Of a stretch of 64,000 nucleotides of DNA, positions 8,973 to 48,385 are shown piece by piece. The notes beneath the pieces were generated by a model, which was not told where the DNA came from, made no database searches, and saw only the letters and a list, made by a program, of their open reading frames with translations. The position numbers and the translations under genes are program-made. Origin of the DNA: Candidatus Adlerbacteria bacterium (GTDB taxonomy: Bacteria > Patescibacteriota > Minisyncoccia > Phycocordibacterales > SBAW01); the NCBI GenBank assembly GCA_903851045.1, contig CAINNF010000012.1, positions 37,189 through 101,188 on the forward strand, given 5' to 3'. Position 1 is the first letter of the stretch. Every line of letters begins with the position of its first letter.

Positions 8973-9085
8973 TATTACAATAATACAACTATGTCGTCAA
9001 GTATACCCAAAGTGAGTTACAACAAACCGGAGCGAGCACACCTCACGAATATGCGTTCAGTGGTAGCCAGAAGCACTATTGTTGC

Positions 9086-32371: not shown

Positions 32372-33661
32372 ATGACACACAACGAGCATTTAGACGAGCT
32401 CGCGAGATCCTTCGCGCTCAAAACGCTTCCCGACTCCGAGGTCGAACTCGAGGGGGACATACCCTTTGCCGACATAGAGCCGCTCCAGGAGCGCGCACTC
32501 AGGCACTTTGCCGAAGAGGTGGAGTTGCCCGGCTTTCGCAAAGGGCATGTACCGCTCGACATGGTCAAGAAGCGCGTCGGCGACATCGCGATCCTCGAGG
32601 AGGCGGTGGAGTTCTTCATGCGAGACTTCTATCCCGCACTCGTCACGGTACGCGAGGTAGAGGCCATCGGCCGCCCCGAGATCCGCATCACGAAATTGGC
32701 ACCCGGCAATCCGATCGGCATCGTCATCAAGACCGCCGTCTACCCTACCATCGAACTCCCCAAGGGATGGAAGACGCTCCACGAGTCTATCCCCCAGGAA
32801 GATGCGTCGGTCGTAACCGACACTGAGATCGACGACGCACTCACCTCGATCCGTCGCGCATATGCGAAGGCGAACATGACGACCGCAGCAGGAAAGTCGG
32901 ATTCTGCAGCGTCCCCTAGCAGTCCTGCAGCGGAGGAGTCCGACTTTCCTGCTGCGGATACACAAATCCCCACCCAGGCAGCGGCAGCATCTGCTTCTTC
33001 CGCTGCAGGTCATAACGGGGACGCTGCAGAAGCAGATGCTGCCGCTGCCTCCCCCATCACCAAAATTCCCGCAGAGGACACGCTTCCTTCGCTCGATGAC
33101 GCGTTCGCGCAGTCGCTCGGACCGTTCGCGAACCTTGCGGACCTCAAGGACAAGATGCGTCAAAATCTTTTGACGGAGAAGGAGCAAAAAGCTCGCGACG
33201 CTCGCCGCGGTAAGGTAATCGAAGCGCTTCTCGCGAAAGCCGACTTTTCTGTCCCGACCATCTTCGTCGACAGCGAGCTCGAGAAGATCCTTGGTCAGAT
33301 GGGCGAGGATGTGCAGCGCTACGGCATGACGATGGAGGACTATCTCAAGCGCATCAACAAGACCGAGACGGATGTGCGCAACGAGCTTCACGACCAAGCG
33401 ACCAAGCGCGCTCGACTCCAGCTGATACTCAACAAGATCGCTGGCGAAGAGAAGATCGAACCCGACCAAGCGGCGGTAGATGAGGAGATGAAGCACGCGC
33501 TCGAGCACTTCCCCGAAGCGCGCCCCGACCTCCTCAAGATTCACATCGAGACCATCATCCGCAACGACAAAGTCCTCCAGATGCTCGAGGGCAAAGAGGT
33601 CGAAAAGGCAAAAGCACCCGACCACCACAACCACGAAGAGCACGACCATTCACACGGGTAA
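32372..33661 (+). CDS. tig: Trigger factor with an Ala/Ser-rich low-complexity insert and a His-rich C-terminal tail.
   Basis: GFRKGHVP signature. Insert AAGKSDSAASPSSPAAEE... and tail DHHNHEEHDHSHG. Confidence 0.85.
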   Translation: MTHNEHLDELARSFALKTLPDSEVELEGDIPFADIEPLQERALRHFAEEVELPGFRKGHVPLDMVKKRVGDIAILEEAVEFFMRDFYPALVTVREVEAIGRPEIRITKLAPGNPIGIVIKTAVYPTIELPKGWKTLHESIPQEDASVVTDTEIDDALTSIRRAYAKANMTTAAGKSDSAASPSSPAAEESDFPAADTQIPTQAAAASASSAAGHNGDAAEADAAAASPITKIPAEDTLPSLDDAFAQSLGPFANLADLKDKMRQNLLTEKEQKARDARRGKVIEALLAKADFSVPTIFVDSELEKILGQMGEDVQRYGMTMEDYLKRINKTETDVRNELHDQATKRARLQLILNKIAGEEKIEPDQAAVDEEMKHALEHFPEARPDLLKIHIETIIRNDKVLQMLEGKEVEKAKAPDHHNHEEHDHSHG

Positions 33662-33681
33662 TCACCTTTTTAGAAACACAA

Positions 33682-33713
33682 AAACACCACCCAACTCGGA
33701 TGGTGTTTTTTTG
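33682..33713 (+). terminator. Intrinsic terminator after tig.
   Basis: AACACCA-loop-TGGTGTTTTTTTG. Confidence 0.6.
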
Positions 33714-33978: not shown

Positions 33979-35532
33979 TTACTTACAAAGCCGCTCCCGC
34001 AGCTCAGCAAGTTTGGCGAATGGACTATCCGAGTTGGTTTCACCAACCCGGCCATCCTCCGAAGTATCGTCCACCTTGGGAGCTTGTGGCTCCCGTTTGG
34101 GTTTTACAGGAACAGTAGGTGACACCTGCTCCTGCCTTGCGGAAGCGACGCGAACGCCGCTTTCCGTCACCCACGAGCAGCCGTGAAGCTGCCCGAGCCG
34201 AGCGAGGGTTTCCCTTTGTTCGGGCGTGAGCCCGTCAACAGGAAGTTTGTGCACCACACCATCGCGCTCGGCATGCTCGCGGAACCCCTCCCACGAGAGA
34301 GACGCCTCCCTTGGGTACACATAGTCCCAGTGACGGGTATGTGTCCCCCGCTGGTGCGACCGAGAGTATTCGTCTCGGTCGTGCTCGCGCAGCGATCCGT
34401 CTGGACGGATAACGTACCCGCCCCCGTCGCCGCGCTGACTGCTCGTATGCACAAAAGCGGAGAAATCCGCGAGAGCACGACCAGACGCAACTGCTGCAGC
34501 CATCTGCTCGGCCTCTTCGGCTTTGCGTCTAGCTTCAGCTTCTTCTGCAGCCTGACGCCTTGCCTGCTCCTCGGCACGAACGCGAGCAGTCTCGAGCTGT
34601 TCGCGGAACTTCACCAGCTCCGCGACCGCATGGTTGCATACCTGTTCCGCCTCACTGCGCTGCCGTTTCCAGGAAAGCACGAAATAGGTCCGAGACCAGG
34701 ATGTATTTGCCTCGACCACGCCGTATACCTTGAGGTCGCGGCCATTTATGTCGCGGCCGTAGACAAACTCAACCAGTGGCGGAATCGTCGCCGTATGATT
34801 GGACGCAAAATCCGGCACAGAAACTTCCGGAAACTTCGCAGCCCGCCACACAGCATCATTCCATCCAGCAGACGTGAGTCCGCCAGATAAATCAACCTCA
34901 ACCAACGGGGCTGAAAGAAGCAACTCACCGTTCGCAACGCGAGTTGTGATGCTCGCGACCGCTTCGTCGGTGAGCTGCGGAACAGGGAAATTATATTCCA
35001 AGTCCCTGCCCTCTTGCCGCCGCGAGTAGAGATCGCCCACGAACGGCTTCACACCACCCGCAATCCAGATGAGTGGTTCGACCATACCCTTTGCGGGGGC
35101 ATGGTCGAACTGCTCGAAAACGAGCAGTGCAGCGGGCGAAAAGCGACTCGCATAGACTGAACCGTTAGAATGGAAGTAGTACGTCGAATACCCCTTCCAT
35201 GCATCGGGCACTAGCCCGAAACGAGCGGTAAGAAGCGCAGACGCTTCTTGTTCGCCGAACAGTGCACACGAGCGGAGGACCTCCGCTTCATGTGCAATTG
35301 CCTGTCGGACGGCCTTGCCCAGATCGAACCATGCATGGTTCGCCTGGTACATTGCTCTGCCCCGCGCGTCGCGCTTCTCTACCGGGACGAGCTCGACCCG
35401 GACGATCTGCCCAGGATCAACATCGCGCGGCAAGAAGACGATGCTTCCGCCGTGCGACGAGATGCACTGACGCGTCTCGTCGTACTTTTTCCCCTTCTCT
35501 GCAAGAAGGGTCGCAATAGGTGTGTCGGCCAT
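33979..35532 (-). CDS. Hypothetical 517-aa protein. N-terminal TRAM-like beta-barrel domain (paralogous to 38585..39322), a central coiled coil and an uncharacterised C-terminus. Last gene of the island operon.
   Basis: GGSIVFLPRDVDPGQIVRVELV resembles a TRAM domain (G.V.F.P...PGE.V.V.I). GAGGGAGGG RBS. ARRQAAEEAEARRKAEEAEQ coiled coil. Confidence 0.6.
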   Translation of the reverse strand: MADTPIATLLAEKGKKYDETRQCISSHGGSIVFLPRDVDPGQIVRVELVPVEKRDARGRAMYQANHAWFDLGKAVRQAIAHEAEVLRSCALFGEQEASALLTARFGLVPDAWKGYSTYYFHSNGSVYASRFSPAALLVFEQFDHAPAKGMVEPLIWIAGGVKPFVGDLYSRRQEGRDLEYNFPVPQLTDEAVASITTRVANGELLLSAPLVEVDLSGGLTSAGWNDAVWRAAKFPEVSVPDFASNHTATIPPLVEFVYGRDINGRDLKVYGVVEANTSWSRTYFVLSWKRQRSEAEQVCNHAVAELVKFREQLETARVRAEEQARRQAAEEAEARRKAEEAEQMAAAVASGRALADFSAFVHTSSQRGDGGGYVIRPDGSLREHDRDEYSRSHQRGTHTRHWDYVYPREASLSWEGFREHAERDGVVHKLPVDGLTPEQRETLARLGQLHGCSWVTESGVRVASARQEQVSPTVPVKPKREPQAPKVDDTSEDGRVGETNSDSPFAKLAELRERLCK

Positions 35533-35656: not shown

Positions 35657-37261
35657 TCAGAGGCGGTTGAATACCTCTTGTGCGTCGGCGTCGGAGAACG
35701 ACGAGGCACGAAGAATGTCGCCATCGCAGAACCTCTTGAGCGTGGCGTCGCTCGTATGGCCAACGTCGCAGAGAATCCCCACGACATTGACCCCACGCAG
35801 ACGCTTTTCTGCAAGAAATTCCGCCAGAAACGCCTCCGTGACATGGGCGTCGCCATCGGTGATGAAGGCAATGTCCGCTTTTTTGAGACCCTCAATCCGA
35901 ATCGTATTCATCGCGTCGGTGAGCGGACGCTCAAAGTCCGTACCCGATGCTTTGAGAAACGTTTCGGCGATCTCAAGGGTCTCTCTGGGCGAGAGTCGTC
36001 CACCTTTATACACACGGGTCACGTTTTTGGAATCACGTGCTCCGTAATGTATCCAAACGAACGATCTTTTGCGGAGTTTTGCATAGTATGCAAGTGCGAG
36101 CACTGTCGCCTTCGCCCACACCTGCTTCGCCCCTTCCATAGAACCGGAGCCATCTTCGCAGACCACCACCGGCCCCTCGCCCATTTTTTGCTTCGCCTCT
36201 TCGCCACGCAGACGAAGCTCGCCCCTGCTCCAGCGCGTGAGAGCTTTCGTACGGAGTGCAGGATGCGCGAGCGCAACAAGCTCGGAGGAGACCGCGCGTT
36301 TGATGTCGCGGCCCGTCTCAAACTTCGTCACGCGCACACCCTCGGCCTGCTCCTTGGACCGCGCCTTGCGAGCAGCGATCTTTTTGATTCGGCCGAGGAT
36401 TTTAGCGAAGTCCTTGAACGCTTTATTATTTTGTATGCGTTCAAGAAGGGCGAGAGCTTCGGGGATACCCTCACGGGTCAACTCCCCTTCCTCAAAGCCC
36501 CATGTCTGGAGGGTCTCCGACACCTCCTCGACCTTCTCTTTGGCTCGCTTCGCTGCGGCGAGGCCGAGGCGTGCGAGCTCTTGCAGTTTCTTTGCCGCTG
36601 CTTCGCTCCCGGGTTTCCCCATCAGCGATTCGGCGGCGGCATCGGCTTGCGCCTGCGCAGTATCAGCTGCCGCACGAGCAGCTTGCGCCTGTGCACGTGC
36701 CTCTGCCGCTTGCGCGGAGAGACCGGCTGCTTGTGAAGAGGGTTGCCCCGCCCCGCCAGCAGATTGTGCTTGCTCGGCCAATTCGCCGAGCATATCAGCC
36801 TCAGCTTCGGCCTTTTGAGCTTCGGCCTCTGTCTCGTCCGCCGTATTTTGCGCGTCGGCGGACTCTTGAAGCTTTTTTGCATCCCCTTTCGACACATTCG
36901 CGACGATGGTGTCACCCATCGTGAGCGTGCCAAGGATGGACGCGAGCTCCGAGAACCGCGTCTGCGCATGGAGCCCCTCGTAGGCGGATGTCGCCATCGC
37001 GCCTTTGAGAATCTCCGCGAAGAAGCTCCGGTCGCTCGGCGCATCATCGCGCACCACAGGCGTTGCCGCCCAAAGCACGTGATAGATGTCGGCGAGCGCG
37101 CCGGCAGTGCCGGGGAGCTTCTGCTCCCCGGCAGCCTCGAGTTCGGCAAGTGCGGGCATACGCTCGCGTTGCCGGAGGAAGCGGAGCGCCGTGAAGGCGT
37201 CCGCGTCTGTCACGAGCAGCTTTTGCAAGTCTGCCCGCGACAGTGTCTTCGGTGCCTTCAT
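35657..37261 (-). CDS. vWA-domain protein (CoxE-like; C-terminal von Willebrand A domain with MIDAS). Partner of the upstream MoxR ATPase.
   Basis: VVVCEDGSGSM (DxSxS) ... ITDGD MIDAS motif. Ala/Gln-rich coiled-coil N-terminal half. The start is 8 nt after the MoxR stop, with a GGTAGGAGGGG RBS. Confidence 0.8.
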   Translation of the reverse strand: MKAPKTLSRADLQKLLVTDADAFTALRFLRQRERMPALAELEAAGEQKLPGTAGALADIYHVLWAATPVVRDDAPSDRSFFAEILKGAMATSAYEGLHAQTRFSELASILGTLTMGDTIVANVSKGDAKKLQESADAQNTADETEAEAQKAEAEADMLGELAEQAQSAGGAGQPSSQAAGLSAQAAEARAQAQAARAAADTAQAQADAAAESLMGKPGSEAAAKKLQELARLGLAAAKRAKEKVEEVSETLQTWGFEEGELTREGIPEALALLERIQNNKAFKDFAKILGRIKKIAARKARSKEQAEGVRVTKFETGRDIKRAVSSELVALAHPALRTKALTRWSRGELRLRGEEAKQKMGEGPVVVCEDGSGSMEGAKQVWAKATVLALAYYAKLRKRSFVWIHYGARDSKNVTRVYKGGRLSPRETLEIAETFLKASGTDFERPLTDAMNTIRIEGLKKADIAFITDGDAHVTEAFLAEFLAEKRLRGVNVVGILCDVGHTSDATLKRFCDGDILRASSFSDADAQEVFNRL

Positions 37262-37269
37262 AGCCCCTC

Positions 37270-38472
37270 CTACCGGCGGACGCCCGTCGCCTTCGCGACG
37301 AACTCCGCCTTCTTTTTGCCAACCTCTTTCCGCAGGTCGGCGATTGCGGTCTTATCGACCCCGCTTGCCTCACCTTCGAGACGACCGAGCTCGCGCTCGG
37401 TCTCCTCGAACTGCGCGAGCGCGGGAACCAGCTTGTTGCGGTCGCCGCCCTCGACGAGAGCGACCATGCCACCCGGCGCAAAAAGCGCGTCCACCTGCTC
37501 CTGCGCATCCGAGAGAGGCGTGCGCACGAGCGGGGCAATCTTCGCCTTCACGACCGGGATCTGCTCGGGAGTGTCCCAGAGCAGGTACTCGAGCACGCGC
37601 AGATCGGCAGAGCCGACCTGCGCACGCCCGTCGAGTATCGCCGACGCTTGCAAGACGTCGAATACCCGCCCGAATCGCCGATCGTCGTCCCAGAGCCACT
37701 GGAAACCGGCCGTGTCCTCGTCGAGCAGCTGCTGATACAAGTCGAGAACGAGCTCGACCATATCGTCAGCAACCTCGACGAACGGCCGCGCTTCCCGCAG
37801 CGTCTCGACTTCCGCGAGCGAAAGCCGAGCAGCGGCAGACACAGCAGCACCACGGTCGCGAACAAGTCGCGCCGCAACGAGCGACAGCTTTCCACCGCGA
37901 TCCAGCGGGTCCACCTGCACGCGGAGGGTCATTCGCGACCACATCGCGCCCAGGTTTCCTTCTGGGTCGGGCGGCTCGTTGCTGGCCGCGAGAAACGCGA
38001 GAAGCGGCGGCTTGAAGTCGCGCCCCTCGTGCCGGATTGCGTCCCCGTTCGCGAAGTCGAGAACGGTCTGGAGAACGCGCGGGTCCCCCTTCCATATCTC
38101 GTCCGCGAAGAAGAAATGTGCGTTCGCGGCGCGCCCGATCGAGTCACGCGTGCGAATGAGCTTGCGCCCCTCCGCGTCGACTGACTCCTCGATCGCGGTC
38201 TCTTCGACGAAGAGTCCCTCGAACGAGGTCATGGTCGGCATGAGAGCCCCGTAGTAGCGGGCACCCTCGATCACGCGCGACAAGTCCTTCACGGTGCCCG
38301 TTTTGTTGATACCGGGCGATCCGAGAAAGAACGCGGGGTGGCCGGCGACCGTCGCGAGCATCGTTGCCCGCACGATTGCCTCGCGTCCGATGTTGCGCGA
38401 AGCAACGTCGGCCCCGACAATCGCCACTTTCGGCGCGAGGCCTGTGGCGAGATTGAGAATTTCCTTATTCAT
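37270..38472 (-). CDS. MoxR-family AAA+ ATPase.
   Basis: Walker A GSPGINKT, Walker B FFFADEIWKG and sensor-1 AASNEPP in MoxR-type spacing. 400 aa. Confidence 0.85.
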   Translation of the reverse strand: MNKEILNLATGLAPKVAIVGADVASRNIGREAIVRATMLATVAGHPAFFLGSPGINKTGTVKDLSRVIEGARYYGALMPTMTSFEGLFVEETAIEESVDAEGRKLIRTRDSIGRAANAHFFFADEIWKGDPRVLQTVLDFANGDAIRHEGRDFKPPLLAFLAASNEPPDPEGNLGAMWSRMTLRVQVDPLDRGGKLSLVAARLVRDRGAAVSAAARLSLAEVETLREARPFVEVADDMVELVLDLYQQLLDEDTAGFQWLWDDDRRFGRVFDVLQASAILDGRAQVGSADLRVLEYLLWDTPEQIPVVKAKIAPLVRTPLSDAQEQVDALFAPGGMVALVEGGDRNKLVPALAQFEETERELGRLEGEASGVDKTAIADLRKEVGKKKAEFVAKATGVRR

Positions 38473-38486
38473 CAGTCTGTCCCTTT

Positions 38487-38590
38487 CTTGCCCGTGACCT
38501 TCGACTTCGCTCAGGTCGTGGGCGTGGGTGCCGCGAGCGTCCTCGCAGCTTGTTTGAAGATTTCATCGCCATAATCCCGTCGGATTATGG
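38487..38590 (-). repeat. Leader repeat copy 1 (about 104 nt) immediately upstream of the MoxR start. Contains the palindrome CCATAATCC-gacg-GGATTATGG.
   Basis: About 90% identical to 39347..39428. Both copies end 25-30 nt before a start codon, with GGTCACGGGCAAG then an RBS then ATG. The palindrome overlaps the TAA stop of the upstream gene. Confidence 0.7.
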
Positions 38591-39322
38591 TTCGCGGAGT
38601 ATTCTGTCTGCCTCCGCGTCGGACATCCCTACAGTGAGACGCGTGCTTAGCGCCTCATTGCGTGTGGATGCCCGCTCGACACTCTCAAGCCATGCATCCG
38701 AAATCTGTACACGCCGATACTCCTTACCGGCCTGCACAGCATCTGCGATAGACGGATTAGCCATCCACTGCAGACACTCTTCCAGCTGGAGCTGGTCTGC
38801 GCTTGGCAGAAGCTCGAACACAAGGAGCATCTGCCGCGAGAGAGTCGTGTGACGTATCTCCCCCGAGGCGAATATGACGCGACCGTACTCAATACTAGGT
38901 GCGCCACTCCACTCACGCGCCAGACTGAAGAGCAGAGCTCGACGCTTTATCCAAGAAAGCGACCGAGCGAACCCAGTCCCCTCTTGGAGCATGCGAGAAA
39001 AAGCCTGCTCCATTGGGAGCGACTCTCCATCACGCTCCATGCGGAGAAGCATGCTTGCTTCTTCCGCAATTGCTCGCCTGCACTCTTGCGATAGGGTTGG
39101 AGGTGCGAGCTCGCCACGGTACATGAATGCCCCGGTAGCACTTCTTTTCGCCAAAACTTGTAGTCTGGCTCGTACAACCGAGCCAATTTTCAGACTTGGC
39201 GGCAAAAATACAATGGGTCCGCGACGAATCCTCCCGCCGATGAAGCCGACGCGGTCGGCGTCACTTCTTCGGCCTCGCTCGACAGCGAGGTATTCCACCT
39301 TGCCGTCCCTGTTTTCATCCAT
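38585..39322 (-). CDS. Hypothetical 246-aa protein with an N-terminal TRAM-like domain (paralog of the N-terminus of 33979..35532).
   Basis: GRIRRGPIVFLPPSLKIGSVVRARL aligns with GGSIVFLPRDVDPGQIVRVEL, and RRAIAEEA aligns with RQAIAHEAE. The ORF track starts at 39436; the ATG at 39322 (MDENRDGK), preceded by GGAGAGGATGGAGAT, is the likelier start. Confidence 0.55.
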   Translation of the reverse strand: MDENRDGKVEYLAVERGRRSDADRVGFIGGRIRRGPIVFLPPSLKIGSVVRARLQVLAKRSATGAFMYRGELAPPTLSQECRRAIAEEASMLLRMERDGESLPMEQAFSRMLQEGTGFARSLSWIKRRALLFSLAREWSGAPSIEYGRVIFASGEIRHTTLSRQMLLVFELLPSADQLQLEECLQWMANPSIADAVQAGKEYRRVQISDAWLESVERASTRNEALSTRLTVGMSDAEADRILREP

Positions 39323-39346
39323 ATCTCCATCCTCTCCTTGCCCGTG

Positions 39347-39428
39347 ACCTAAGTCGTGGGCGTGGGTGCTGCGAACGTCCTTGCAGCTTGGTTGAAGATG
39401 TCCTCGCCATAATCCCGTCGAATCATGG
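39347..39428 (-). repeat. Leader repeat copy 2 (about 82 nt) upstream of the TRAM-like gene. Contains the imperfect palindrome CCATGATTC-gacg-GGATTATGG.
   Basis: Alignment with copy 1 shows a 12-15-nt indel and about 8 substitutions. Confidence 0.7.
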
Positions 39429-39627
39429 CGAGCCAACGCGTCGCTTTCGCGACACCGGTAGCCTGCATGCCTCCGATGCCGTGCTTGTGCGCCGCGATGG
39501 AGGCAAGGTCGAACGCGGCCGAAGGCGACTTATCCCGCGCAATGCCAATGCACTCCATACGGAGCGCCTCGGGCACCTGCGCGAGCACACCGGCACGAAG
39601 CTGGAGCTCATGCAGTGGACGAGACAT
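39349..39627 (-). CDS. Possible small ORF (92 aa) overlapping the HD-gene stop and reading through leader repeat copy 2. Doubtful.
   Basis: Start overlaps the HD stop by 20 nt. GC-rich region. The corresponding frame in copy 1 is closed. Confidence 0.25.
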   Translation of the reverse strand: MSRPLHELQLRAGVLAQVPEALRMECIGIARDKSPSAAFDLASIAAHKHGIGGMQATGVAKATRWLAMIRRDYGEDIFNQAARTFAAPTPTT

Positions 39628-40132
39628 GCTCGACCTCCCGCAAAAGCTCCTCGATTAAGGGCGCGCCATCCGGATCGATCTCGTACCACAGCGGCAGCGC
39701 AGACCGAATCTCCGCAAGCTTGCGCTCACGGAACTCAGGTGGCGCGTGCCGCAGAGTGTTGAGATTGTCCAGGCGGTCGGACCGCTTCACAGTGACCGCT
39801 AAGCAGCCACCGACGGCCACGCGACGAAGATACACTGCATCCGGCTCCTCTTCCTCCTCGTGGCTTAATGCACGAACGACCCGCGCCACTCGCTCGCCGA
39901 ACTGCTCGGCAAGCGCAGCATCCGTCGTGTCCGTATCCTCGAGCACATCGTGCAAGAGGGCGGACACAATGAGATCCTCAGCATCACTGCCGAGGAGCCC
40001 GTTGTCGCACGCGAATTGCGCGGCAATAAGCGCCACGCGCATCACGTGCTCAATCTGGGACTCGCCGCCGGGGCGGGTTTGTCCCTTATGTCCCACTTGC
40101 GCGAACGCAAGCGCTGCGGGAATTTTATTCAT
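39608..40132 (-). CDS. Stand-alone HD-domain hydrolase of Rel/SpoT type (small-alarmone-hydrolase-like), 174 aa.
   Basis: HVMRVALIAA...ALLHDVLEDTDTT...EQFGERVARVVRALSH matches the ppGpp-hydrolase HD domain of RelA/SpoT/Mesh1 (RVA...ALLHDVVEDT...FG..VA.LV.GVTK). Start MNKIPAAL at 40132 with a GGAGA RBS; the ORF track over-extends to 40519. Confidence 0.7.
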   Translation of the reverse strand: MNKIPAALAFAQVGHKGQTRPGGESQIEHVMRVALIAAQFACDNGLLGSDAEDLIVSALLHDVLEDTDTTDAALAEQFGERVARVVRALSHEEEEEPDAVYLRRVAVGGCLAVTVKRSDRLDNLNTLRHAPPEFRERKLAEIRSALPLWYEIDPDGAPLIEELLREVEHVSSTA

Positions 40133-40241
40133 AGGTCTCCTCGTCCCTATCAACCCGCGAATGATCCGCGAGCTGAATAAGTCTGGCGAACGCACACGGT
40201 ACCACCGCGCACGCTCGCCAAAAAACCAAGAACCAGTTACT

Positions 40242-41975
40242 TCACCACGGGCACCGTGTCGTTTCGGTGCCCGAGATGACCTCTTCTGCGTCCCATATAA
40301 GGGCGTTTTCGTTCCAGAACGTGGCGGAAGTCTTGTCCGCGTTCCGGTCCCACGGCTCAGCGGGACACCGTGTCCCGATGAAAGCCGTGAGGAGAACGTA
40401 GGCACCGCCGGTGGTGCGCTTGACCAGCACCACCACCCGCGAGCACGGCTCGGGCTTCCGGTTTTTGACGAACCGGGTGAGCCCGCGACGATTCGGCCGC
40501 TGGGCATAGACGATTTCATCCGCGCTAGTTGTCGCGACGCGGATGTTTTCGCCGACGACTCGCCCCATGTCGAGTTCGGCGATAACGACCTCGCGGCTGT
40601 CCGAACTCATCATACTGAGTGCCTCAGCGAGGCACGGAAGCACGCTCGAGTGCGTGGCGACGTGACTATCTTTCACGTCGACCACAAATTCACCCGACGC
40701 AAGCCGTCCCAAAATGGGGACGCCCCAGCGCAAAAGATCGAACGAAACCGGGAAGATTTCCCCGACCTTTTCGTCCGGGCCGGCGACGACAACCGCCGGT
40801 CCAGCGAAGGGGTACGCCTCGTCCCACAGCCGCCCGCCGAGGGTAGGCTGCGCCCGGCCGGACTCAACCGGCCAGAACTGCCCCACCCACGGACAGCCCG
40901 CGCGCGCGTAGGCACGCACGAGTGTCGCATGGAGCCACATCGGCGGGCCGTCGTTTGCGACGACGGCCGGCCGTGAGGTGTCCACACCGGGCGGCACCAG
41001 TTGCCGCAGGTCATCCACCGTGATGAAGCGCGTATTGCGCCACTTCACCAAAGTGAATTCGGGAAGTGCGAGCACTTCCCACTCGACACCCGGACAAAAG
41101 CCCGAGCCCGACGGCGTCACTTCGGGGATACGGATGTACCCCTTGCTGACGTCGTAGAGCTCGACTGCGCCCGAGAGTCGGGCGGCGTAGGCCGAGGCCA
41201 GAATCGCCGCGCGGGCGTTGTACACTCGCACGGTTTCGAGTTTGTTTGCCGCACGCGCCAAGACGAGTGCCGGACGCAGATGCGCCGGACGCACGCCAAG
41301 AAATGGATCGTGCGCATCGTCAACGCCAAGCCGCGTCAACAGTGACGCGACATTAATGTTGGCGATGAGCTCTCCATTCGTGATCTCTCCGTTTTCACGG
41401 ATGATCTCACGAAGACGATTCACAACCGCGTCGAGCGTGGGCGACTGGATAGTCTGCCCACGCTCGAGTCCCGAGATCCGCCCGCGGACGACGCCGTCGC
41501 CGCGGTCGACATACAGCTCGCAGGTGCCGTGAAGCACACTGTCGAGCTCGGCGAGCACGGCGACATTGCGCGCAGCAGCAAATTGCCGCCACGCAACGAC
41601 TTCATCCTGCTTGGACGAGAGGATGATGCACGCGTCGCATGCATCAAAAATCCTCTCGTTCGCCTCGGAGCGAACGCCGCCGGTGTCTACCAACACCAGC
41701 GGTTGTTCGTTGGCTTTGATGGCCTCCACCATCGAGCCAACGAAGTTTTCCGTGAATTTTCCCTTTTGCCGCACCGCGGCGACCAAGACTTGGTCGCCAA
41801 AGTTACTCCAGTGCCACTCCCCATCGGGGGCGGCAAAGGCCAGATAGAAGCTGTCTGGCGGCAGCTGGCACATCAACTGCGCCAAGAATACGGACTTGCC
41901 GCTGTGCGGCGGCCCGCAGACGATGACACGCCGCATGGCGCTTCTCCTCTCTTTGTTTGTGTGAACCTTTATCAA
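40242..41975 (-). CDS. 577-aa protein: an N-terminal P-loop NTPase/kinase-like domain (about 150 aa) fused to a large uncharacterised C-terminal domain.
   Basis: Walker A VIVCGPPHSGKSV and LVLVDTGG (Walker B/G3-like). The C-terminal 400 aa have no recognised motif; the ELD..K / VVLVK stretch could be nuclease-like. GAGAGGAGAAG RBS. Confidence 0.6.
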   Translation of the reverse strand: MIKVHTNKERRSAMRRVIVCGPPHSGKSVFLAQLMCQLPPDSFYLAFAAPDGEWHWSNFGDQVLVAAVRQKGKFTENFVGSMVEAIKANEQPLVLVDTGGVRSEANERIFDACDACIILSSKQDEVVAWRQFAAARNVAVLAELDSVLHGTCELYVDRGDGVVRGRISGLERGQTIQSPTLDAVVNRLREIIRENGEITNGELIANINVASLLTRLGVDDAHDPFLGVRPAHLRPALVLARAANKLETVRVYNARAAILASAYAARLSGAVELYDVSKGYIRIPEVTPSGSGFCPGVEWEVLALPEFTLVKWRNTRFITVDDLRQLVPPGVDTSRPAVVANDGPPMWLHATLVRAYARAGCPWVGQFWPVESGRAQPTLGGRLWDEAYPFAGPAVVVAGPDEKVGEIFPVSFDLLRWGVPILGRLASGEFVVDVKDSHVATHSSVLPCLAEALSMMSSDSREVVIAELDMGRVVGENIRVATTSADEIVYAQRPNRRGLTRFVKNRKPEPCSRVVVLVKRTTGGAYVLLTAFIGTRCPAEPWDRNADKTSATFWNENALIWDAEEVISGTETTRCPW

Positions 41976-42110: not shown

Positions 42111-42536
42111 TTACGATTTCTGGAGGATCTTCACCTCCACCCGCGTGTACGTGACGTACACGCGGAACTGTTCGAAGCGCTCGCCGAGCTTGGCGGCGTA
42201 CGATTCGACGAGCACGGCCCAGTCCTCGTCGGACAGATTCGCCGCGTAGAGCGGCGACTTGTCGGACGTCAAGACGAGCGCCGGCTCGTGCTCGCCGTGC
42301 CAGCCGTCGCCAGTCGGGTAGGCGTAGGTGATCACCGAGTCGGTGACGATGAACGGAACGAACGGCTTGCCGGCAGCGCCGTCCTGCTTGTACAGGTCGG
42401 TCAGAAAGGCGAGGACCTCGCCCTTCTCCTGCGCGAATCCGGTGTAACCCTTCTTCAGACCGAGGTTGATCTCGGCCCGAATCGTGTTCCTGGCATGACC
42501 GACGTTGCCGTTCTCGGTCGGGATCGAATAAACCAT
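42111..42536 (-). CDS. Hypothetical protein (141 aa from the MVYSIPTEN start).
   Basis: Perfect AAGGAGG SD 7 nt before the ATG at 42536. The ORF track starts at 42572. Confidence 0.5.
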   Translation of the reverse strand: MVYSIPTENGNVGHARNTIRAEINLGLKKGYTGFAQEKGEVLAFLTDLYKQDGAAGKPFVPFIVTDSVITYAYPTGDGWHGEHEPALVLTSDKSPLYAANLSDEDWAVLVESYAAKLGERFEQFRVYVTYTRVEVKILQKS

Positions 42537-42731
42537 GAGTGTCCTCCTTAAGGACGTTTGGGGTATTGGCATGATTGCCTCACCCTTTCAAACAGTCGTG
42601 TATATGCAACGACACACAACAACTTGAAAGGGTGCACGAATGGGTACCAGCCATTCGTGCGAAAACCTGTACCAACGCGCCATACCGCGCTGATGCTATT
42701 AACCTTGCTCCTTATATGGAGGAGTTTGCCG

Positions 42732-43130
42732 TCAGGCCCGGACGAGCCGGGTGACGGCGTAGACCTGGCCGTCCGCCGTGCGGACGACTCCGTCCCGCGG
42801 GCCGGTGCCGGGGATGAAGACATCCTCGCGTGCGGCCACTTCGGGCCGCCCGCCGACGAGGGCGGAGACCAAGTAGACGGTCCCCTCCTCGGGCTCGGGC
42901 AGCCCCTCCACCGCACCATACGCGGTGCGGTCGAAGGTGGGCACACCGCCCAGGTCGGGCAGGCGCCCGCCTGGCGTGGTCGAAACCCGCGCGGGCGCGG
43001 GCCTGCCGTCCGCGCCAAGGCGCGGCAGGACGACGATGTCGGTCTCGTCCGGCTTCGGCGCCGTATTGGCGGCGTTCATCCGCAACCGGAGCGGGTGCGG
43101 GTTCAGGTTGAGGAACTTGACGTCGATCAT
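42732..43130 (-). CDS. Hypothetical protein (132 aa), Pro/Gly-rich. First gene of the island operon.
   Basis: GAGGGGG RBS before ATG (MIDVKFLNL). Confidence 0.5.
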   Translation of the reverse strand: MIDVKFLNLNPHPLRLRMNAANTAPKPDETDIVVLPRLGADGRPAPARVSTTPGGRLPDLGGVPTFDRTAYGAVEGLPEPEEGTVYLVSALVGGRPEVAAREDVFIPGTGPRDGVVRTADGQVYAVTRLVRA

Positions 43131-43336: not shown

Positions 43337-43425
43337 GTATGCGACCCCTCTTTCCAGCACGATGGGGCGAGCGCAATATATTTGTGCTGCTCGCATGCCG
43401 GCATAGTGCGGAAAAGAGGGGTCAC
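43337..43425. repeat. Nested-hairpin element: outer inverted repeat ATGCGACCCCTCTTTCC / GGAAAAGAGGGGTCACAT enclosing the GCGAGC..GCTCGC and ATGCCGGCAT palindromes.
   Basis: Read directly. The GCGACCCCTC core recurs at about 44207 and 49487. Confidence 0.5.
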
Positions 43426-43644
43426 ATCTGTGGATTTCCTTTCTCCTCGTTTGAAACCGCTATTCGATTAGCTCGAAGTGAGTCATCAGATACTGGTTTC
43501 AAGTAGGAGGACGAGCGCATAACCAAGCGCTCGCCTCAAGTTTGGAGAGTTTATACCCAGGCACTCCCCTGCCTGTTGCGAACGCTGCCGTGTCAGCGTT
43601 CGCGATGAACTATTCCCCTGCACGGAGGGGTTTGGAGGCGAATC

Positions 43645-44019: not shown

Positions 44020-44949
44020 GTAATCCTCCATTTGGAGACCTCGTCCATCCCACACCCATGACAGTGCGGCGAGGCGGCCTTGCGGCCATGTTTGTGTGCC
44101 CGGGCAACGTGACACTGCACGAATTGGCGCGATGAAGGCGCCAACGGCCCGGTTTTAGTCAGCGTGACACTGCACGCGGGATCGCTCTTCTTTCGAAGTG
44201 CACATGCGACCCCTCTTTCCGGTTCGACTTCCCTCGATAAATCTCGGGATAAATCGCTCACCGTAAACGGCAAACGAACATTCAAGCCGGAGAAGAGGAA
44301 TAACATTGTGATTATCTGCTTTCGCAGAAAGTTTTTTCACGTTTTCCTGTTCTACCTATGGCATCCAGACACACTGTTTAGGAGCGATCTGGAAGAATTT
44401 TGTCAAAGACCTTTCCTTCAGGCGGCCGTGGCCTTGGCGAAGGAGCCCTCTCTATGAGGACATTTCTAAGCATGAAAGCTGGTTTAGGTCTTTCGTGCTC
44501 AGCCGATGTCTCCCCGAGCCTTTGGCTCGGGACCCCGCAAAGCTCGTGAGAGCGCAGTGGGGCCAAAACAACGTTCGATACAGCTGGCTTCTCGCCCTAC
44601 TCTCACGGCTGGGGACCCATTTGCGGAGGTGCCATGCCCGAGAGACCGTATCTGCAAATAGAGATTTATTTCGAGCCGCCTCTCATCCCCACTCTCTCCT
44701 CTTTCTACGCTTAGCCGCTTTGCAGCAGGGGCCGTAGTACCCTCCCGGCGAGCCGGGACTAGAGGTGGGGGACGATTCGAATGAAACCTCCCGTCTATGA
44801 TGAACTCTTGCTTCGGGCTATTCCCTCGGCATCTGACAACATCTTAGCATTTTCATTGCCAAGTGTCAAGCCATGTGTGGCAAATAATCGTTCTCGTGTC
44901 ACGCAAAATACCCTTGATTTGTATGTATTTTATACGAAATAAGGTTTTA

Positions 44950-44991
44950 TTTGTCACAGAAGCTTGACAAATCAACCCCTACGAGTATACT
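44950..44991 (+). promoter_or_regulatory. Promoter plus palindromic operator of TrmB paralog 1.
   Basis: TTTGTCA-cagaagct-TGACAAA palindrome overlapping the -35 TTGACA. A 16-nt spacer, then -10 TATACT, then 6 nt to the ATG (near-leaderless). Confidence 0.55.
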
Positions 44992-44997
44992 GGCAGT

Positions 44998-45840
44998 ATG
45001 GATACCAAAGAACTTTCGTATGGTCAGAGCTTGGTCGAGGCAGGTTTGACGAAGGACGAGGCGCTCGTCTACGAGACCCTCGTGCTGCGCGGCCCACTCC
45101 AAGCTGGCGTATTAAAGCGGCATGTTCCTCTCTCCCGCCCGCTGGTATATAAGGTGCTAGGGACACTTGAGGCGGCTGGGTTAGTCGAAAAAAGGGATGA
45201 ACCCGGCAAAGTCGCCGTCTTCGCCCCCGCGCATCCGCTGAAGTTACAGGAGTTGGTCGAGAGGCGCTTCGACGACGCTCAAAATGCAAAGTCCTCTCTC
45301 GAGGGAGCAATCTCGCGACTCATCTCCGACTTCAACCTCGTTTCGGGTAAGTCGGGTATACGGTTTTATGAGGGTACAGACGGCGTGCGTGAAGTACTTA
45401 ATGACGCACTCACAGCAAAGACCGAGATACTCGCCTATATAGACATCGAGACGGTGGAGCGCGAGATGGGGGAGGCAAGCAAAGCGTTTGGTATCGCTCG
45501 CAAAAAACGCGGCCTCCACAAGCGCAACATCGCCGTCGACACACTCGCTAACCGAGCACTCGTTGACCAAGAATATCTTGATGACATAACTAAAGAGCGG
45601 CTTATCCCTTGGTCAACGCCCACATTCAGTGTCTCGACGCAGATATACGACGATCGTGTGTCATATCTCACATTCGGCGCCCAGAAGATCGGCGTCATCG
45701 TCAACGACCCAGCAATTGCCGCCATGCATCGCGGGTTATTTGAGTTGGCGTGGAGTCACCCGAGCGCATATGTACCAAAGACTCACGCAGCTAAGGCAAG
45801 CGGCTCAGCTACTGACGACAACCGCTCGAATGCAGCATAA
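44998..45840 (+). CDS. TrmB-family transcriptional regulator (paralog 1).
   Basis: N-terminal winged HTH (LTKDEALVYETLVLRGPLQAGVLKR...LVYKVLGTLEAAGLVEK) plus a TrmB-like C-terminal domain. Confidence 0.8.
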   Translation: MDTKELSYGQSLVEAGLTKDEALVYETLVLRGPLQAGVLKRHVPLSRPLVYKVLGTLEAAGLVEKRDEPGKVAVFAPAHPLKLQELVERRFDDAQNAKSSLEGAISRLISDFNLVSGKSGIRFYEGTDGVREVLNDALTAKTEILAYIDIETVEREMGEASKAFGIARKKRGLHKRNIAVDTLANRALVDQEYLDDITKERLIPWSTPTFSVSTQIYDDRVSYLTFGAQKIGVIVNDPAIAAMHRGLFELAWSHPSAYVPKTHAAKASGSATDDNRSNAA

Positions 45841-46694
45841 TACTTTTGTGTACCCGACTCGTCCTGCTCCATGAAATAGCGCGTTAATACCATCCTGTCG
45901 TGCAATAAAGTTGGAAAATCTGGTACAGTCTCGCTCGCCACAAACTGCGTGAGCACAGAGCGCTCGCCGCGAGCAGCTCGCTCCATGATGTCTTTCCTCG
46001 ACAAACGTTTTGTTGCGAACAGATTGCCTTCGCGCCGCTCTAGAGCAAGTGTTGGCTCGCCCTGGTCTTCGAAACGGTGCGTAGCGTAAAAGTTGTAGTC
46101 CTCGAAGTATTTGCTCACGATAGGGGTGCGCACAATGTCGATGTCCGACTCTGCGACCAATACCGAACCCTTTTGTTCTTGGTCGATGCCTTGCTCCATC
46201 ACCGCCTGACCAAGCATGCCTCCCTCGAATGACTGACTGGTGAGAAACGAGGCGAGATGCTTCTTGGGGAGTTCGTCTTCACTGGTGCCGACTTGCTCGG
46301 CTGAAAAGTAACAAGCGATCTGCCCTTTATAGCGGTAGATATAGAACGTGGTTTGCTCACTCCCGAGCGCCTTTTCAAATTGTGCTCGCAACTCATGCTC
46401 CAACTCTGCGCCATACTTCCCCGCGTAGCGATATTCCCAAATGTGCCGCATATCTGTACGATTAACCTCCTGAAGCTGTGCCGCGTTGACACTTTCGAGC
46501 GTACCATCTCGCACTTGCTCGAGCGATAATTGGTTGCGTGTTTTGAGCACACGACACGCGTCGGTAAACAGCGCAATGTCTGCTTGCACCGACTGCGCGA
46601 GCGCCACCAGTCGCTCGGGTTCGTCTTTGTACGTGTGCGCATCAGCAAGTAGCTTGCGTGCGCGGTTAAGTTGTCGCTCAACTACCGCACCCAC
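45783..46694 (-). CDS. Hypothetical protein (303 aa). Its 3' end overlaps the TrmB-1 3' end by 58 nt.
   Basis: Long ORF with lower GC than its surroundings. Its start overlaps the upstream gene's stop by 13 nt, suggesting translational coupling. Confidence 0.55.
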   Translation of the reverse strand: MGAVVERQLNRARKLLADAHTYKDEPERLVALAQSVQADIALFTDACRVLKTRNQLSLEQVRDGTLESVNAAQLQEVNRTDMRHIWEYRYAGKYGAELEHELRAQFEKALGSEQTTFYIYRYKGQIACYFSAEQVGTSEDELPKKHLASFLTSQSFEGGMLGQAVMEQGIDQEQKGSVLVAESDIDIVRTPIVSKYFEDYNFYATHRFEDQGEPTLALERREGNLFATKRLSRKDIMERAARGERSVLTQFVASETVPDFPTLLHDRMVLTRYFMEQDESGTQKYYAAFERLSSVAEPLALAA

Positions 46695-48385
46695 GACGCC
46701 TGTGTCCTGCGCACCAAACGACTCGGCAAATAAGTACCCATAGTATCAACAGACTCTATGAGCGAACTGTACGCCGCAAAGACCGCGTGCGCCTGCTCGG
46801 GTGCTGTCGTGTGTGCAAACTCAAACACTTTATCCCGTAATGTCGGATCTTGTTCAGTGACGAGAAAGGTACGCAGACCATCTACGCCGAATGAGTGGGT
46901 GAATTCTTTTGTCGATTCAGCGTCCTGTACAGATACGGTCTTTAAATACTGCAACATGCGGAACTGTTCATGTAGTGTGAGGTCAGCGAGCGTACACCCA
47001 AATTCGTTTTCTATCGTCTTTCGCACTGGCCTCGTGAGCATATACTCAAAGTCGTGCTCGGCGATCTTCGCTTGCTCTAAATCCATCTCCCCATCCTTGG
47101 TCTGAAGTACGAGATCACGAGCATCTACTTTATAGGTAAAAAGTGCCGCAATCGCAGTTTGCGTCTCTTGATACTGATCCCATAATTGTCTATTTGGTGT
47201 CCAAATTATTTCGTGTTCACCCTGTGCTATAGCCGCATCAACCAACTCTTGTGGAGGCTGGAGTTGCCCACGCAACTCACGGAGTCGAAACAAGAGCCCC
47301 TCTACTTTTCCACGCGTCTCTCCTTCAATTATGTATAATCCATCTGACTTATGAAACCCAAGAACTCCATTCGATACCTCGAACGGTTCACCATCATTAT
47401 CAGGCAACGTGTCGTGCTTCTCCATGCGATCATATAGTTGGCGAGCACGCATATTGAGTAGGTAACTACCTTCCCTGTGTTCGACTGCGCGACGCAGCGA
47501 AGACGATATCGCTCGCGGGACAGCTTCTTCCGAAAAACTCCAGTGCGAACCCTCGCGATGTAGATGTCGCAACAACTCGAGAAAGTGGCCAGTCTGTGAG
47601 TAATTCTGTGGATTGTTAAAATCAAGACTACGAAGTATTGCGGCTTCATACCGTGGACCCCAATGAAATGAAAAAATATAATTTAGTGATGCAACGCCGC
47701 TAGTTCGTAGTGAAGGATGTACATCATTTCTCCAATATATGTCAGCCACTTCCTCGATAAGTACGTTTGGGTCGATCAGTTGGCCGTTCTGACCAATAGC
47801 ATCATCCATCTGCTGCATAGCCCATACCGCACGACGGTCTTTAGAAAAATGCGGATCTTTCATTGCGGCATACAAAGCGCGATACGCCTTTGAAGTAAAC
47901 GAGTCTCGGGATATCTTCCCTCCGCGAGCAAGGTTAAACCCAACATGATGCGCATCGGCACTATGTTCTGTACAAAACTCTATTGCTTTGTGCACCATCG
48001 TGTCTACCTCTTCTTGAGAAAGGTGGTTGAGAAACTCGCCGCTGTATGGCAACCCACGAAATAATTTCTGTGTAATTTCTTCTGGTGAACTGTCAACAAT
48101 CCACTCACGAACTATGTTCAATTGTTCGCGTTCTACTTTCGTTAATTCGGGTTCTACCTCTTCTTGTCGTTGAGACTCCTGCTGTACTAATTCGTGATTA
48201 CGAGGAGGGACGAGTTGTTTCTCCAACAACGTCTTTGACTTCTTCGGCGCTCCACCAGGCATTTTCATATCCTCTATGCTACCGCGAAATGATGAGGTGC
48301 AAAATAGTTCTTTCTTGCTTTCGTCCTTTCCTTGTCCGCCGAAGTCTCGACGAAGGGGGTTAGACTCATCAGCATAGATACACAT
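46682..48385 (-). CDS. Hypothetical protein (567 aa, or about 527 aa from the internal MKMPGG start).
   Basis: Long ORF of about 47% GC with no recognised motif. Confidence 0.55.
   Translation of the reverse strand: MCIYADESNPLRRDFGGQGKDESKKELFCTSSFRGSIEDMKMPGGAPKKSKTLLEKQLVPPRNHELVQQESQRQEEVEPELTKVEREQLNIVREWIVDSSPEEITQKLFRGLPYSGEFLNHLSQEEVDTMVHKAIEFCTEHSADAHHVGFNLARGGKISRDSFTSKAYRALYAAMKDPHFSKDRRAVWAMQQMDDAIGQNGQLIDPNVLIEEVADIYWRNDVHPSLRTSGVASLNYIFSFHWGPRYEAAILRSLDFNNPQNYSQTGHFLELLRHLHREGSHWSFSEEAVPRAISSSLRRAVEHREGSYLLNMRARQLYDRMEKHDTLPDNDGEPFEVSNGVLGFHKSDGLYIIEGETRGKVEGLLFRLRELRGQLQPPQELVDAAIAQGEHEIIWTPNRQLWDQYQETQTAIAALFTYKVDARDLVLQTKDGEMDLEQAKIAEHDFEYMLTRPVRKTIENEFGCTLADLTLHEQFRMLQYLKTVSVQDAESTKEFTHSFGVDGLRTFLVTEQDPTLRDKVFEFAHTTAPEQAHAVFAAYSSLIESVDTMGTYLPSRLVRRTQASWVR

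Follow-up and report, generated by a model that had tools for sequence, protein, structure and literature searches.

The 64,000-nucleotide (nt) stretch of DNA analysed here, from a Candidatus Adlerbacteria bacterium and hereafter called the window, holds an island between tig (32372..33661) and clpP (51978..52619), two plus-strand genes that lie ~18.3 kb apart. Within it, a cassette of minus-strand genes with short gaps runs from ~44.85 kb down to 33.7 kb, in the order g156, Unk_01, g153, P-loop–Csx3, HD, g92, g283, MoxR, vWA and g517. The gene in question, HD, encodes a predicted nucleotide hydrolase of 174 amino acids (aa), read on the minus strand from the ATG at 40132 to the TGA at 39610-39608. 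This frame is the inner part of a mechanically called open reading frame (ORF) of 303 aa (39608..40519), and the start at 40132 is preferred because a Shine-Dalgarno sequence (AGGAG) lies 5 nt upstream of it and because public gene calls agree, giving the identical 174-aa product at 100% identity on 13 metagenomic contigs.

The HD protein matches the Pfam family HD_4 (PF13328) at E 1.9e-14, with 54.1 bits against a curated cut-off of 27.2, and the generic HD family (PF01966) at E 2.8e-8. Its match to the NCBIfam model TIGR00691 (spoT_relA; E 1.2e-20) is confined to profile positions 1-133, the hydrolase portion of the model. Its closest relatives in the PDB (E 1e-12 to 1e-4) are Rel hydrolase domains (6S2T/6S2V, 5XNX, 1VJ7), Drosophila and human Mesh1 (3NQW, 3NR1, 5VXA), small alarmone hydrolases (SAHs; 6YVC, 6Z3N/O, 7QOC) and a (p)ppApp hydrolase (7SMG); judged by these E-values, the similarity is far beyond chance. 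HD_4 and HD are the only domains found in the 174 residues, with no synthetase, TGS or ACT domain, and by predicted architecture the protein is a SAH. The preliminary description of this DNA had called the gene a stand-alone Rel/SpoT-type HD hydrolase from the block RVA...ALLHDVLEDT...FGE.VA.VV. That block is present verbatim (the protein reads MRVALIAAQ...SALLHDVLEDTDTT...QFGERVARVV), the profile comparison with HD_4 that it proposed gave a match above the cut-off and did not place the protein in an unrelated HD subfamily, and the assignment is borne out by HD_4, TIGR00691, the PDB relatives and the six motifs described below.

The hydrolases of the RelA/SpoT homologue (RSH) family have six defined catalytic motifs, HD1-HD6: the HD1 Arg stacks on the base and the HD6 Asn contacts it, the HD2 His, HD3 His-Asp and HD5 Asp-Arg/Lys are Mn2+ ligands, and the HD4 Glu-Asp acts in nucleophile activation (PMC9293644). 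In the HD protein these motifs are R20, H29, H61-D62, E65-D66, D119-R120 and N123, and all six are invariant in an alignment of 29 homologues. As the motifs are kept among homologues that are only 51-85% identical, the predicted enzyme is very likely active. Near the active site, the 'GEPY..HP' of generic HD_4 proteins and of two Saccharibacteria Rel enzymes is replaced by 'GGESQ.EHV' in the HD subfamily; an acidic loop, SHEEEEEPD, is invariant in the subfamily, with T-K/D-D-K at that place in the other proteins compared.

A word-indexed search returned ~60 close homologues of the HD protein (at least 52% identity), and in this search the E-value falls from 1e-31 in the HD clade to 1e-10 where ordinary HD_4 proteins begin. 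When a clade profile was run against 1.84 billion representative proteins, it gave 36,444 matches at E<=1e-3 and only 37 at E<=1e-30. In these searches the clade appears as a small, distinct and rare subfamily, and the E-value gap together with the 37 representatives suggests a SAH subfamily of its own (Jimmy et al. 2020 named 11). Among the matches listed from 185,579 GTDB species-representative genomes there is one subfamily-level member, in the metagenome-assembled genome of an uncultured Candidatus Saccharibacteria (L008, 52% identity). This suggests that the subfamily belongs to Saccharibacteria-type bacteria of the candidate phyla radiation (CPR), the one named genome being Ca. Saccharibacteria. 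Bifunctional Rel proteins of ~480 aa are encoded in Saccharibacteria (L041, L053), and (p)ppGpp signalling therefore exists in the group. No subfamily member was found among the IMG/VR or GenBank phage matches, of which the best were generic SAHs at no more than 40% identity, and the match of the HD protein to phrog_990 is at the family level only. With viral matches limited to such generic SAHs, HD is ruled out as a phage gene and the phage counter-defence role raised in the preliminary description is not supported. A megablast of the 9-kb cassette core against complete E. coli genomes gave no match, and a DNA pattern for H.GQ.RPGGE run across metagenome contigs gave 120 chance matches and no member of the HD subfamily.

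Two genes adjoin HD:

39349..39627, minus strand: g92, a conserved ~90-aa partner of HD (92 aa), with the motifs IAR.KSPSA and AKATRWL..IRRD.G
40242..41975, minus strand: P-loop–Csx3, a protein of 577 aa made of a P-loop domain, a Csx3 domain and a C-terminal domain, directly upstream of HD

The g92 start overlaps the HD stop by 20 nt, with a GGAGG within the 3' end of HD, and by this arrangement HD appears to be translationally coupled to g92. To place the pair in context, twelve related loci from different samples (given here by L numbers) were compared by tblastn and with precomputed Pfam gene tables, and g92 lies directly downstream of HD in eight loci (51-78% identity). It has no match in Pfam, PHROG or PADLOC, including a lenient Pfam scan at E<=1. 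HD and g92 form a two-part module; the overlapping pair sits within an 11-kb operon, and g92 has no synthetase features. When the 37 subfamily representatives were surveyed for fusions, the g92 domain was found N-terminal to HD in six proteins (P0192, P0200, P0187, P0185, P0202 and P0209; BLASTP E 1e-14 to 3e-6), and HD was found fused to the P-loop domain of P-loop–Csx3 in P0214 and P0215 (E 1e-14 and 1e-12; 29% identity over ~190 residues). Of all the evidence, these fusions speak most strongly for a physical cooperation of HD with g92 and the P-loop domain, and HD is predicted to be functionally tied to this Csx3-linked P-loop domain.

The P-loop–Csx3 gene starts in public calls at the ATG at 41936, which yields 564 aa. 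The 577-aa protein matches the PADLOC family AAA-Csx3 (PDLC01059) at E 8.7e-45 and just passes the cut-off of Pfam Cas_csx3 (22.3 bits, cut-off 21). Its AlphaFold2 (AF2) model (pLDDT 90) has three parts. The P-loop domain, at the N-terminus, has MinD, FtsY, MeaB and ApbC as its nearest folds, with a weaker resemblance to nucleotide kinases; among viral structures, a phage APS kinase matches it best. The Csx3 domain superposes on AfCsx3 (6YUD) with a TM of 0.86 in Foldseek. The beta-rich C-terminal domain (40242-40700, ~150 aa) carries the motifs SH...H, RxGLTRFVKNR and PAEPWD and has no fold match among the matches listed; C-terminal residues 435-563 match phrog_23674 (E 6e-22), and the domain is a separate gene in L006 (7928-8341) and L174 (8325-8972). 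In AfCsx3, residues H57, H60, D69, R71, S44 and R46 are needed for the cleavage or binding of cyclic tetra-adenylate (cA4; PMC7371418). In an HMMER alignment to AF_1864, the first four are R, A, W and V in the 577-aa protein and S44 and R46 are A and D. Because the catalytic and ligand residues of AfCsx3 are thus replaced, a ring-nuclease activity of this protein seems unlikely. The SGRG motif is kept in shorter P-loop–Csx3 relatives.

As the preliminary description had it, no alarmone synthetase is detectable in the island: no RelA_SpoT match was found there at E<=0.01 or at E<=1, and none occurs in the Pfam tables of the 12 related loci. A 577-aa P-loop ORF does lie where it was placed, directly upstream of HD on the same strand; as a cryptic synthetase it is not supported, since P-loop–Csx3 shows no nucleotidyltransferase (RelA/SpoT synthetase) fold among the matches listed and no profile match, and as a partner of HD it gains from the fusions P0214 and P0215. 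Likewise, the role as antitoxin of a toxSAS toxin that it raised for HD is not supported: with RelA_SpoT (PF04607) as the query, no small alarmone synthetase (SAS) partner was found in the island or the related loci.

Other members of the cassette are the following:

37270..38472, minus strand: MoxR/RavA-type AAA+ ATPase, 400 aa (Pfam bpMoxR E 1.1e-17, AAA_lid_8 E 6.9e-12, AAA_5; NCBIfam RavA E 5e-30)
35657..37261, minus strand: vWA protein, 534 aa (NCBIfam ViaA E 2.9e-10; Pfam VWA_CoxE E 5e-4, below cut-off)
33979..35532, minus strand: g517, the last cassette gene; its N-terminal ~300 aa are conserved and its C-terminal part is variable
42111..42572, minus strand: g153, a small protein just upstream of P-loop–Csx3, with no family match in Pfam, NCBIfam or PADLOC
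42732..43130, minus strand: Unk_01-family protein, 132 aa (PADLOC PDLC01138 E 6.3e-11; phrog_30542, phrog_21731)

The MoxR translation shows a Walker A (GSPGINKT) and a Walker B (FFFADE) motif, and MoxR is downstream of HD–g92 in each of the 10 HD-bearing loci whose sequence extends far enough. The vWA protein has a long alanine/glutamate-rich N-terminal half and a C-terminal vWA domain with a MIDAS-type DGSGS...T...D arrangement (CEDGSGSM and ITDGD in the translation), and it is 41-62% identical across nine loci. The N-terminal part of g517 (g517N) follows vWA in 10 loci. Its AF2 model (pLDDT 82.8) runs from an N-terminal beta-barrel through an alpha/beta region and a helix of 58 residues (292-349) to a C-terminal beta domain. 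Matches from Foldseek were all weak (E>=0.01), the compact ones being RNA-binding S1/TRAM/OB domains, with no propeller or STAND fold among them, and Pfam gave none, including at E<=1. The lenient Pfam scan (E<=1) also showed nothing meaningful in g153, Unk_01, g283, g156, g303, g567 (for the last two, see below), the C-terminal domain of P-loop–Csx3 or the N-terminal half of the vWA protein. Pfam did not bear out a TRAM domain considered for g517 and g283, of which Foldseek gives no more than a weak hint.

The MoxR AAA+ ATPase, the MIDAS-bearing vWA protein and the OB-like/coiled-coil protein g517 are the constant core of the operon. Together with HD and g92, as HD–g92–MoxR–vWA–g517N, they recur in L004, L006, L008, L088, L089, L090 and L173, and again in L296, where four genes make up a compact version in which g92 and HD are fused; in the core of L091, another small gene replaces g92. 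Usually P-loop–Csx3, Unk_01, a small slot gene and a divergent TrmB gene lie upstream of HD, and the forms of P-loop–Csx3 vary, with long, short, split (L006) and duplicated (L089) genes. In L174, P-loop–Csx3, a 604-aa protein, MoxR, vWA and a g517N-like gene occur with no HD (the short P-loop–Csx3 of this locus, P0142, is from a Candidatus Uhrbacteria genome according to NCBI). In L172, the P-loop–Csx3 front module is followed by a DEAD/HA2 helicase, with no MoxR–vWA. Because L174 has the 604-aa protein instead, and L172 and L295 have helicase modules, HD–g92 is an exchangeable module of the cassette. The chromosomal sites differ as well: the cassette lies between tig and clpP in the window, between EF-G and EF-Tu in L004, in the vicinity of G6PD in L006 and of pilM in L088, and beside RNase Y/clpP in L089. 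Such a variable location is the behaviour of a mobile or often exchanged island.

The slot upstream of P-loop–Csx3 is occupied by g153 in the window, by a stand-alone Csx3 (27.4 bits) in L173 and, in L172, by a weak STIV_B116-like protein (19.4 bits, below cut-off), whose Pfam family we take to be the DUF1874/AcrIII-1 ring-nuclease family. Pairwise comparison showed no similarity of g153 to these slot proteins of L172 and L173; homologues of g153 adjoin P-loop–Csx3 genes in L008, L089 and L173. Unk_01 is present in L004, L088, L090, L008 and L091, and its family has been listed beside Csx16 and Csx20 as a predicted ring nuclease family (PMC8284326).

In the divergent cassette of L091, a 2H phosphoesterase (2H-SAK), an AAA_28 gene and an AAA_33/KTI12-like P-loop gene (2782-3288, 4940-5575 and 8859-9353) surround HD instead of P-loop–Csx3, a gene set that hints at RNA-end chemistry. 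At 912-2969 of L295, the gene for P0215 is followed by a DEAD-box helicase. P0215 and P0206 also have a weak Fic/DOC-like C-terminal domain (E 0.033 and 0.005, both below cut-off) with the motif HFFADGCGKT.

From the enzyme family, the intact motifs, the operon structure, the gene linkage, the domain fusions and the lack of a synthetase, all of them observed, we infer a substrate, a direction of regulation and a defence role as follows. HD would be the enzymatic, exchangeable module of a MoxR–vWA-type conflict cassette and would hydrolyse a ribose 3'-(pyro)phosphate, a reading that we put at a probability of about 0.5. Its product would catalyse the Mn2+-dependent hydrolysis of a phosphate or pyrophosphate ester at the ribose 3' of a nucleotide, for which (p)ppGpp/(p)ppApp are the candidates by default because this is the known chemistry of every characterised member. 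It may in this way clear a nucleotide signal or a toxic product, a step that would give the output of a MoxR–vWA-gated conflict system or reset it. In this system the P-loop domain would be the functional partner of HD and the MoxR–vWA pair would control access to HD or its assembly. A nucleotide messenger is the favoured theme because the front modules carry families of the ring-nuclease type (the Csx3 fold, Unk_01 and the stand-alone Csx3 of L173), because MoxR–vWA conflict systems, according to Kaur et al. 2020 (PMC7159879), carry variable effectors that include Csx3 and RelA-type domains, and because every toxSAS toxin tested is neutralised in trans by SAHs from several subfamilies, which reverse the products of RSH toxins (PMC7229694). 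Known extensions of SAH chemistry are the NADPH 2'-phosphatase activity of Mesh1 and the tRNA 3'-pyrophosphatase activity of MESH1 and ATfaRel.

A more specific arrangement, which we think quite unlikely, would pair a writer with an eraser: the P-loop domain would phosphorylate the ribose 2'/3' of a nucleotide or RNA end, thereby making a signal or toxic mark not known before, and HD would erase it, g92 restraining HD and MoxR–vWA releasing it. Behind this stand the APS 3'-kinase among the viral structures closest to the P-loop domain and the fusion with HD in two relatives. If true, it would amount to a new nucleotide-signalling conflict system in CPR, borrowing Csx3 and Unk_01, sensor or ring-nuclease modules of the CRISPR type, without CRISPR.

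Several points weigh against a MoxR–vWA-type conflict cassette that acts on a ribose 3'-(pyro)phosphate. The substrate of HD is a guess, and the SQ.EHV and SHEEEEEPD changes near its active site might signal a non-alarmone substrate. No producer of alarmones or cyclic oligoadenylates was found in the island or in any related locus. The link to cA4 appears weak for the Csx3 copy of the window, given the replaced catalytic and side-chain ligand residues of AfCsx3, and the 64-kb window holds no cas genes or CRISPR array. The cassette is ruled out as a classical ternary system of the kind described by Kaur et al., its third component being without a VMAP, iSTAND, FtsH or propeller signature. The GC content of the cassette is only modestly above that of neighbouring housekeeping genes, which leaves variable location as the sole argument for a foreign origin; no integrase or phage genes were recognised among the tested island proteins. 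Finally, the comparison covers only ~12 loci.

We weighed other functions against the same evidence. HD could act in the healing of RNA 3' ends: on damaged tRNA or RNA it would take off a 3'-phosphate, a pyrophosphate or a 2',3'-cyclic phosphate, with the P-loop domain as a polynucleotide kinase. The two would be a pair like HD-Pnk, whose architecture the fusions P0214 and P0215 mirror (PMC6097658), and the cassette would serve RNA repair or RNA conflict. MESH1 and ATfaRel strip 3'-pyrophosphate from tRNA CCA ends, an activity likened by the authors to the 3'-phosphatase of T4 Pnk, and Csx3 was first described as an RNA deadenylase. The 2H-SAK, AAA_33/KTI12-like and AAA_28 genes surround HD in L091, but 2H and PNK-like genes occur in that one locus only, and no RNA ligase, RtcB, Hen1 or obvious RNase toxin was found in any locus. 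In L172 and L295, a DEAD/HA2 or DEAD helicase comes after the P-loop gene. Weak matches of the P-loop domain are to kinase types (APS kinase, adenylate kinase, shikimate kinase, AAA_18), but it is at least as close to SIMIBI NTPases (MinD, FtsY, MeaB); the N-terminal barrel of g517 finds its best, though weak, matches in S1/TRAM/OB RNA-binding domains, an OB-fold assignment that is not statistically significant (E>=0.01). On balance we hold this function to be possible but rather unlikely. Alternatively, the MoxR–vWA pair, perhaps with the SIMIBI-like P-loop domain, might be assembly chaperones and load or remodel the Mn centre of HD as a dedicated alarmone hydrolase. Characterised MoxR–vWA pairs insert metal clusters or cofactors and assemble complexes (CoxD/E, MoxR, chelatases, RavA–ViaA; PMC7159879), the metallochaperone GTPase MeaB and ApbC are among the nearest PDB folds of the P-loop domain, RSH-type HD enzymes are Mn-dependent (PMC9293644), and the acidic SHEEEEEPD loop of HD could serve as a MIDAS ligand. 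Yet MoxR–vWA–g517N and P-loop–Csx3 are found without HD in L174 and P-loop–Csx3 without MoxR–vWA in L172, so that neither is dedicated to HD, and other SAHs need no such factors. We consider such a maturation role improbable.

The remaining possibilities take HD out of its operon context. As a free-standing immunity or antitoxin-type SAH with unrelated neighbours, it would detoxify the products of RSH toxins delivered in trans by host Actinobacteria, competitors or phages. [quoted passage not shown] The gene order, the overlapping frames and the fusions, however, tie HD to g92, the P-loop domain and MoxR–vWA, no SAS gene is adjacent in any locus, and no subfamily member was found on viral contigs (IMG/VR, GenBank phage), which leaves this explanation with little credence in our view. 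That HD is a housekeeping (p)ppGpp hydrolase complementing the cell's own Rel is highly improbable: the Rel of ~480 aa in L041 and L053 and the canonical motifs of HD would fit such a function, but the subfamily is very rare (37 of 1.84e9 proteins at E<=1e-30, and one subfamily-level member among the matches listed from the GTDB genomes), the location of the cassette is variable and the HD slot is exchangeable.

Among known systems, the SAHs (Mesh1, PaSAH, RelH, ATfaRel/PbcSpo, phage PaSpo) share with HD the HD_4 domain, a similar size, the six motifs and the lack of a synthetase or regulatory domain. HD differs from them in being no more than ~40% identical to any phage or solved SAH, in having SQ.EHV for PY..HP and the SHEEEEEPD loop, and in being obligatorily paired or fused with a novel ~90-aa domain and embedded in a MoxR–vWA operon, rather than alone, by a toxSAS or in a phage. 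With the MoxR–vWA ternary systems, as described in PMC7159879, the cassette shares an adjacent MoxR (best Pfam match bpMoxR) and MIDAS vWA, further conserved components and an exchangeable enzymatic module. In contrast to those systems it shows no third component of the VMAP, iSTAND, FtsH or beta-propeller type, its effector-like HD is encoded on its own without fusion to vWA or VMAP, and it occurs in ultrasmall CPR bacteria rather than in the multicellular lineages emphasised there; a term search of that paper found no RSH hydrolase, as opposed to the RelA synthetase domain. HD-Pnk of Runella slithyformis (Munir and Shuman 2017, as cited in PMC6097658) shares with P0214 and P0215 the order of an N-terminal HD and a C-terminal P-loop domain. 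Unlike HD-Pnk, the HD and P-loop proteins of the window come from separate adjacent genes, the HD belongs to the RelA/SpoT (HD_4) type, a ligase gene was not seen in any locus and the P-loop domain is not demonstrably a polynucleotide kinase. AAA-Csx3 (cluster 67) and Csx3-AAA (cluster 35) are accessory families of type III CRISPR, for which an ATPase controlled by the Csx3/CARF-like domain was proposed (Shah et al. 2018, PMC6546367). The 577-aa protein is like these accessories in profile and Csx3 fold, but the window is without type III cas genes or a CRISPR array, the ring-nuclease and ligand residues are replaced, and the extra C-terminal domain is found elsewhere as a free-standing gene and in phages (phrog_23674).

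Our literature search found no report that joins a small alarmone hydrolase with Saccharibacteria, and none of the papers listed by a looser search contained Csx3. The enzyme family is known; the HD subfamily, its 90-aa partner domain, the Csx3-type P-loop fusions and a MoxR–vWA operon in CPR did not turn up in the literature searched. Stand-alone alarmone hydrolases have so far served in housekeeping, as antitoxins of toxic synthetases and in phage counter-defence; here an intact SAH is wired by its operon and by fusions to a MoxR–vWA chaperone pair, to P-loop–Csx3 and to a new 90-aa domain. This occurs in ultrasmall episymbiotic bacteria, with neither CRISPR nor a synthetase seen in the window and the related loci. 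To our knowledge, P-loop–Csx3 has elsewhere been described only among the accessories of type III CRISPR. Should the cassette be a conflict system, HD would provide an easily assayed enzymatic output for two poorly understood families, the MoxR–vWA 'ternary' systems and AAA-Csx3, and the cassette may reveal a new substrate class for RSH hydrolases. The conflict-cassette hypothesis is testable because Saccharibacteria have recently become genetically tractable (PMC10633639).

The cassette is accompanied by these further features:

38585..39436, minus strand: g283, a paralogue of the N-terminal region of g517, to which public calls give 245 aa; only in the window lineage does it lie between g92 and MoxR
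44998..45840, plus strand, divergent from the cassette: TrmB-family helix-turn-helix (HTH) regulator, 280 aa (Pfam TrmB E 5.4e-12)
44841..44991, between TrmB and the minus-strand cassette: divergent promoter-like region, by consensus matches only
33680..33710, minus strand: terminator-like hairpin after g517 and before tig, a 14-bp stem AAAAACACC...GGTGTTTTT followed by a T-rich tail
45783..48385, minus strand: g303 and g567, two overlapping ORFs in the place of one 850-1050-aa GNAT-domain protein in relatives

A 76-nt direct repeat of 89% identity flanks g283 (38515-38590 and 39353-39428), and the 76-nt repeat together with one of 34 nt (38467-38590, 39317-39428) duplicates the g92 3' end and the MoxR junction on either side of it. 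The gene resembles the g517-like genes of L089, L090 and L296 and is not at the corresponding position in L004, L088 and L090; it looks like a recent duplicative insertion within the operon. Homologues of the TrmB regulator hold the equivalent divergent position in L004, L088, L089, L172 and L173. The promoter-like matches are TTGACA-16-TATACT on the plus strand (44964-44991, 11/12 of the consensus) and TTGACA-17-TAAGAT with a TG on the minus strand (44869-44841, 10/12). A motif, ATGCGACCCCTCTTTCC, occurs three times in intergenic DNA upstream of Unk_01 and g156 (43339-43364, 43402-43430 and 44201-44227), one copy being inverted and 37 nt from a direct copy; it could be a TrmB operator or an RNA hairpin. 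The 'CARF3' PADLOC match of the protein TrmB250 was ruled out as a CARF domain, as it covers the HTH part only.

Whether g303 and g567 belong to the cassette is uncertain. A protein of 850-1050 aa that carries a GNAT acetyltransferase domain close to its C-terminus is found together with TrmB and the cassette at several chromosomal sites that are unrelated (L172 2597-5740, L088 2128-4785, L089 2969-5824, L173 2836-5394). Residues 423-547 of g567 are 40% identical to a 973-aa protein of L004, and profile scans, including the lenient Pfam scan, found no GNAT match in the window counterparts (45783-48385).

Outside the island, the window encodes EF-G, S7/S12, ComEC, RecJ, PGK, TIM, a type IV pilus ATPase, NusA, a pyrophosphatase, RNase Y and four tRNAs, beside the trigger factor and ClpP; by this content it looks like DNA of a small-genome bacterium of the Saccharibacteria kind. 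The GC content is 0.60 in the cassette against 0.545 and 0.50 in the flanks; it was ruled out as proof of a foreign origin, as tig and PGK are about equally GC-rich (0.59). No tandem or short-spaced direct repeats were found in the 64 kb, and the cas-type matches of a PADLOC scan of 67 window ORFs were limited to Csx3, Unk_01 and HTH-type proteins, so that the cassette was ruled out as part of a CRISPR locus. When the 49 ORFs outside the island were scanned together, PADLOC gave mad2 (3 ORFs), LmuA (E 5e-24), RTasMBL, Avs1a, PDC-S07 and PDC-M48B, matches that probably reflect shared housekeeping domains (methyltransferases, the MBL domain of ComEC). The stretch between tig and clpP comprises the cassette, two TrmB-family regulators, g303 and g567, and an ORF-poor stretch at 48.4-50.1 kb. 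In the latter, a 75-aa ORF (48474-48701, minus strand) is the counterpart of an L001 gene that matches RNA_pol_A_CTD (PF03118), and would be a free-standing protein like the C-terminal domain of the RNA polymerase alpha subunit.

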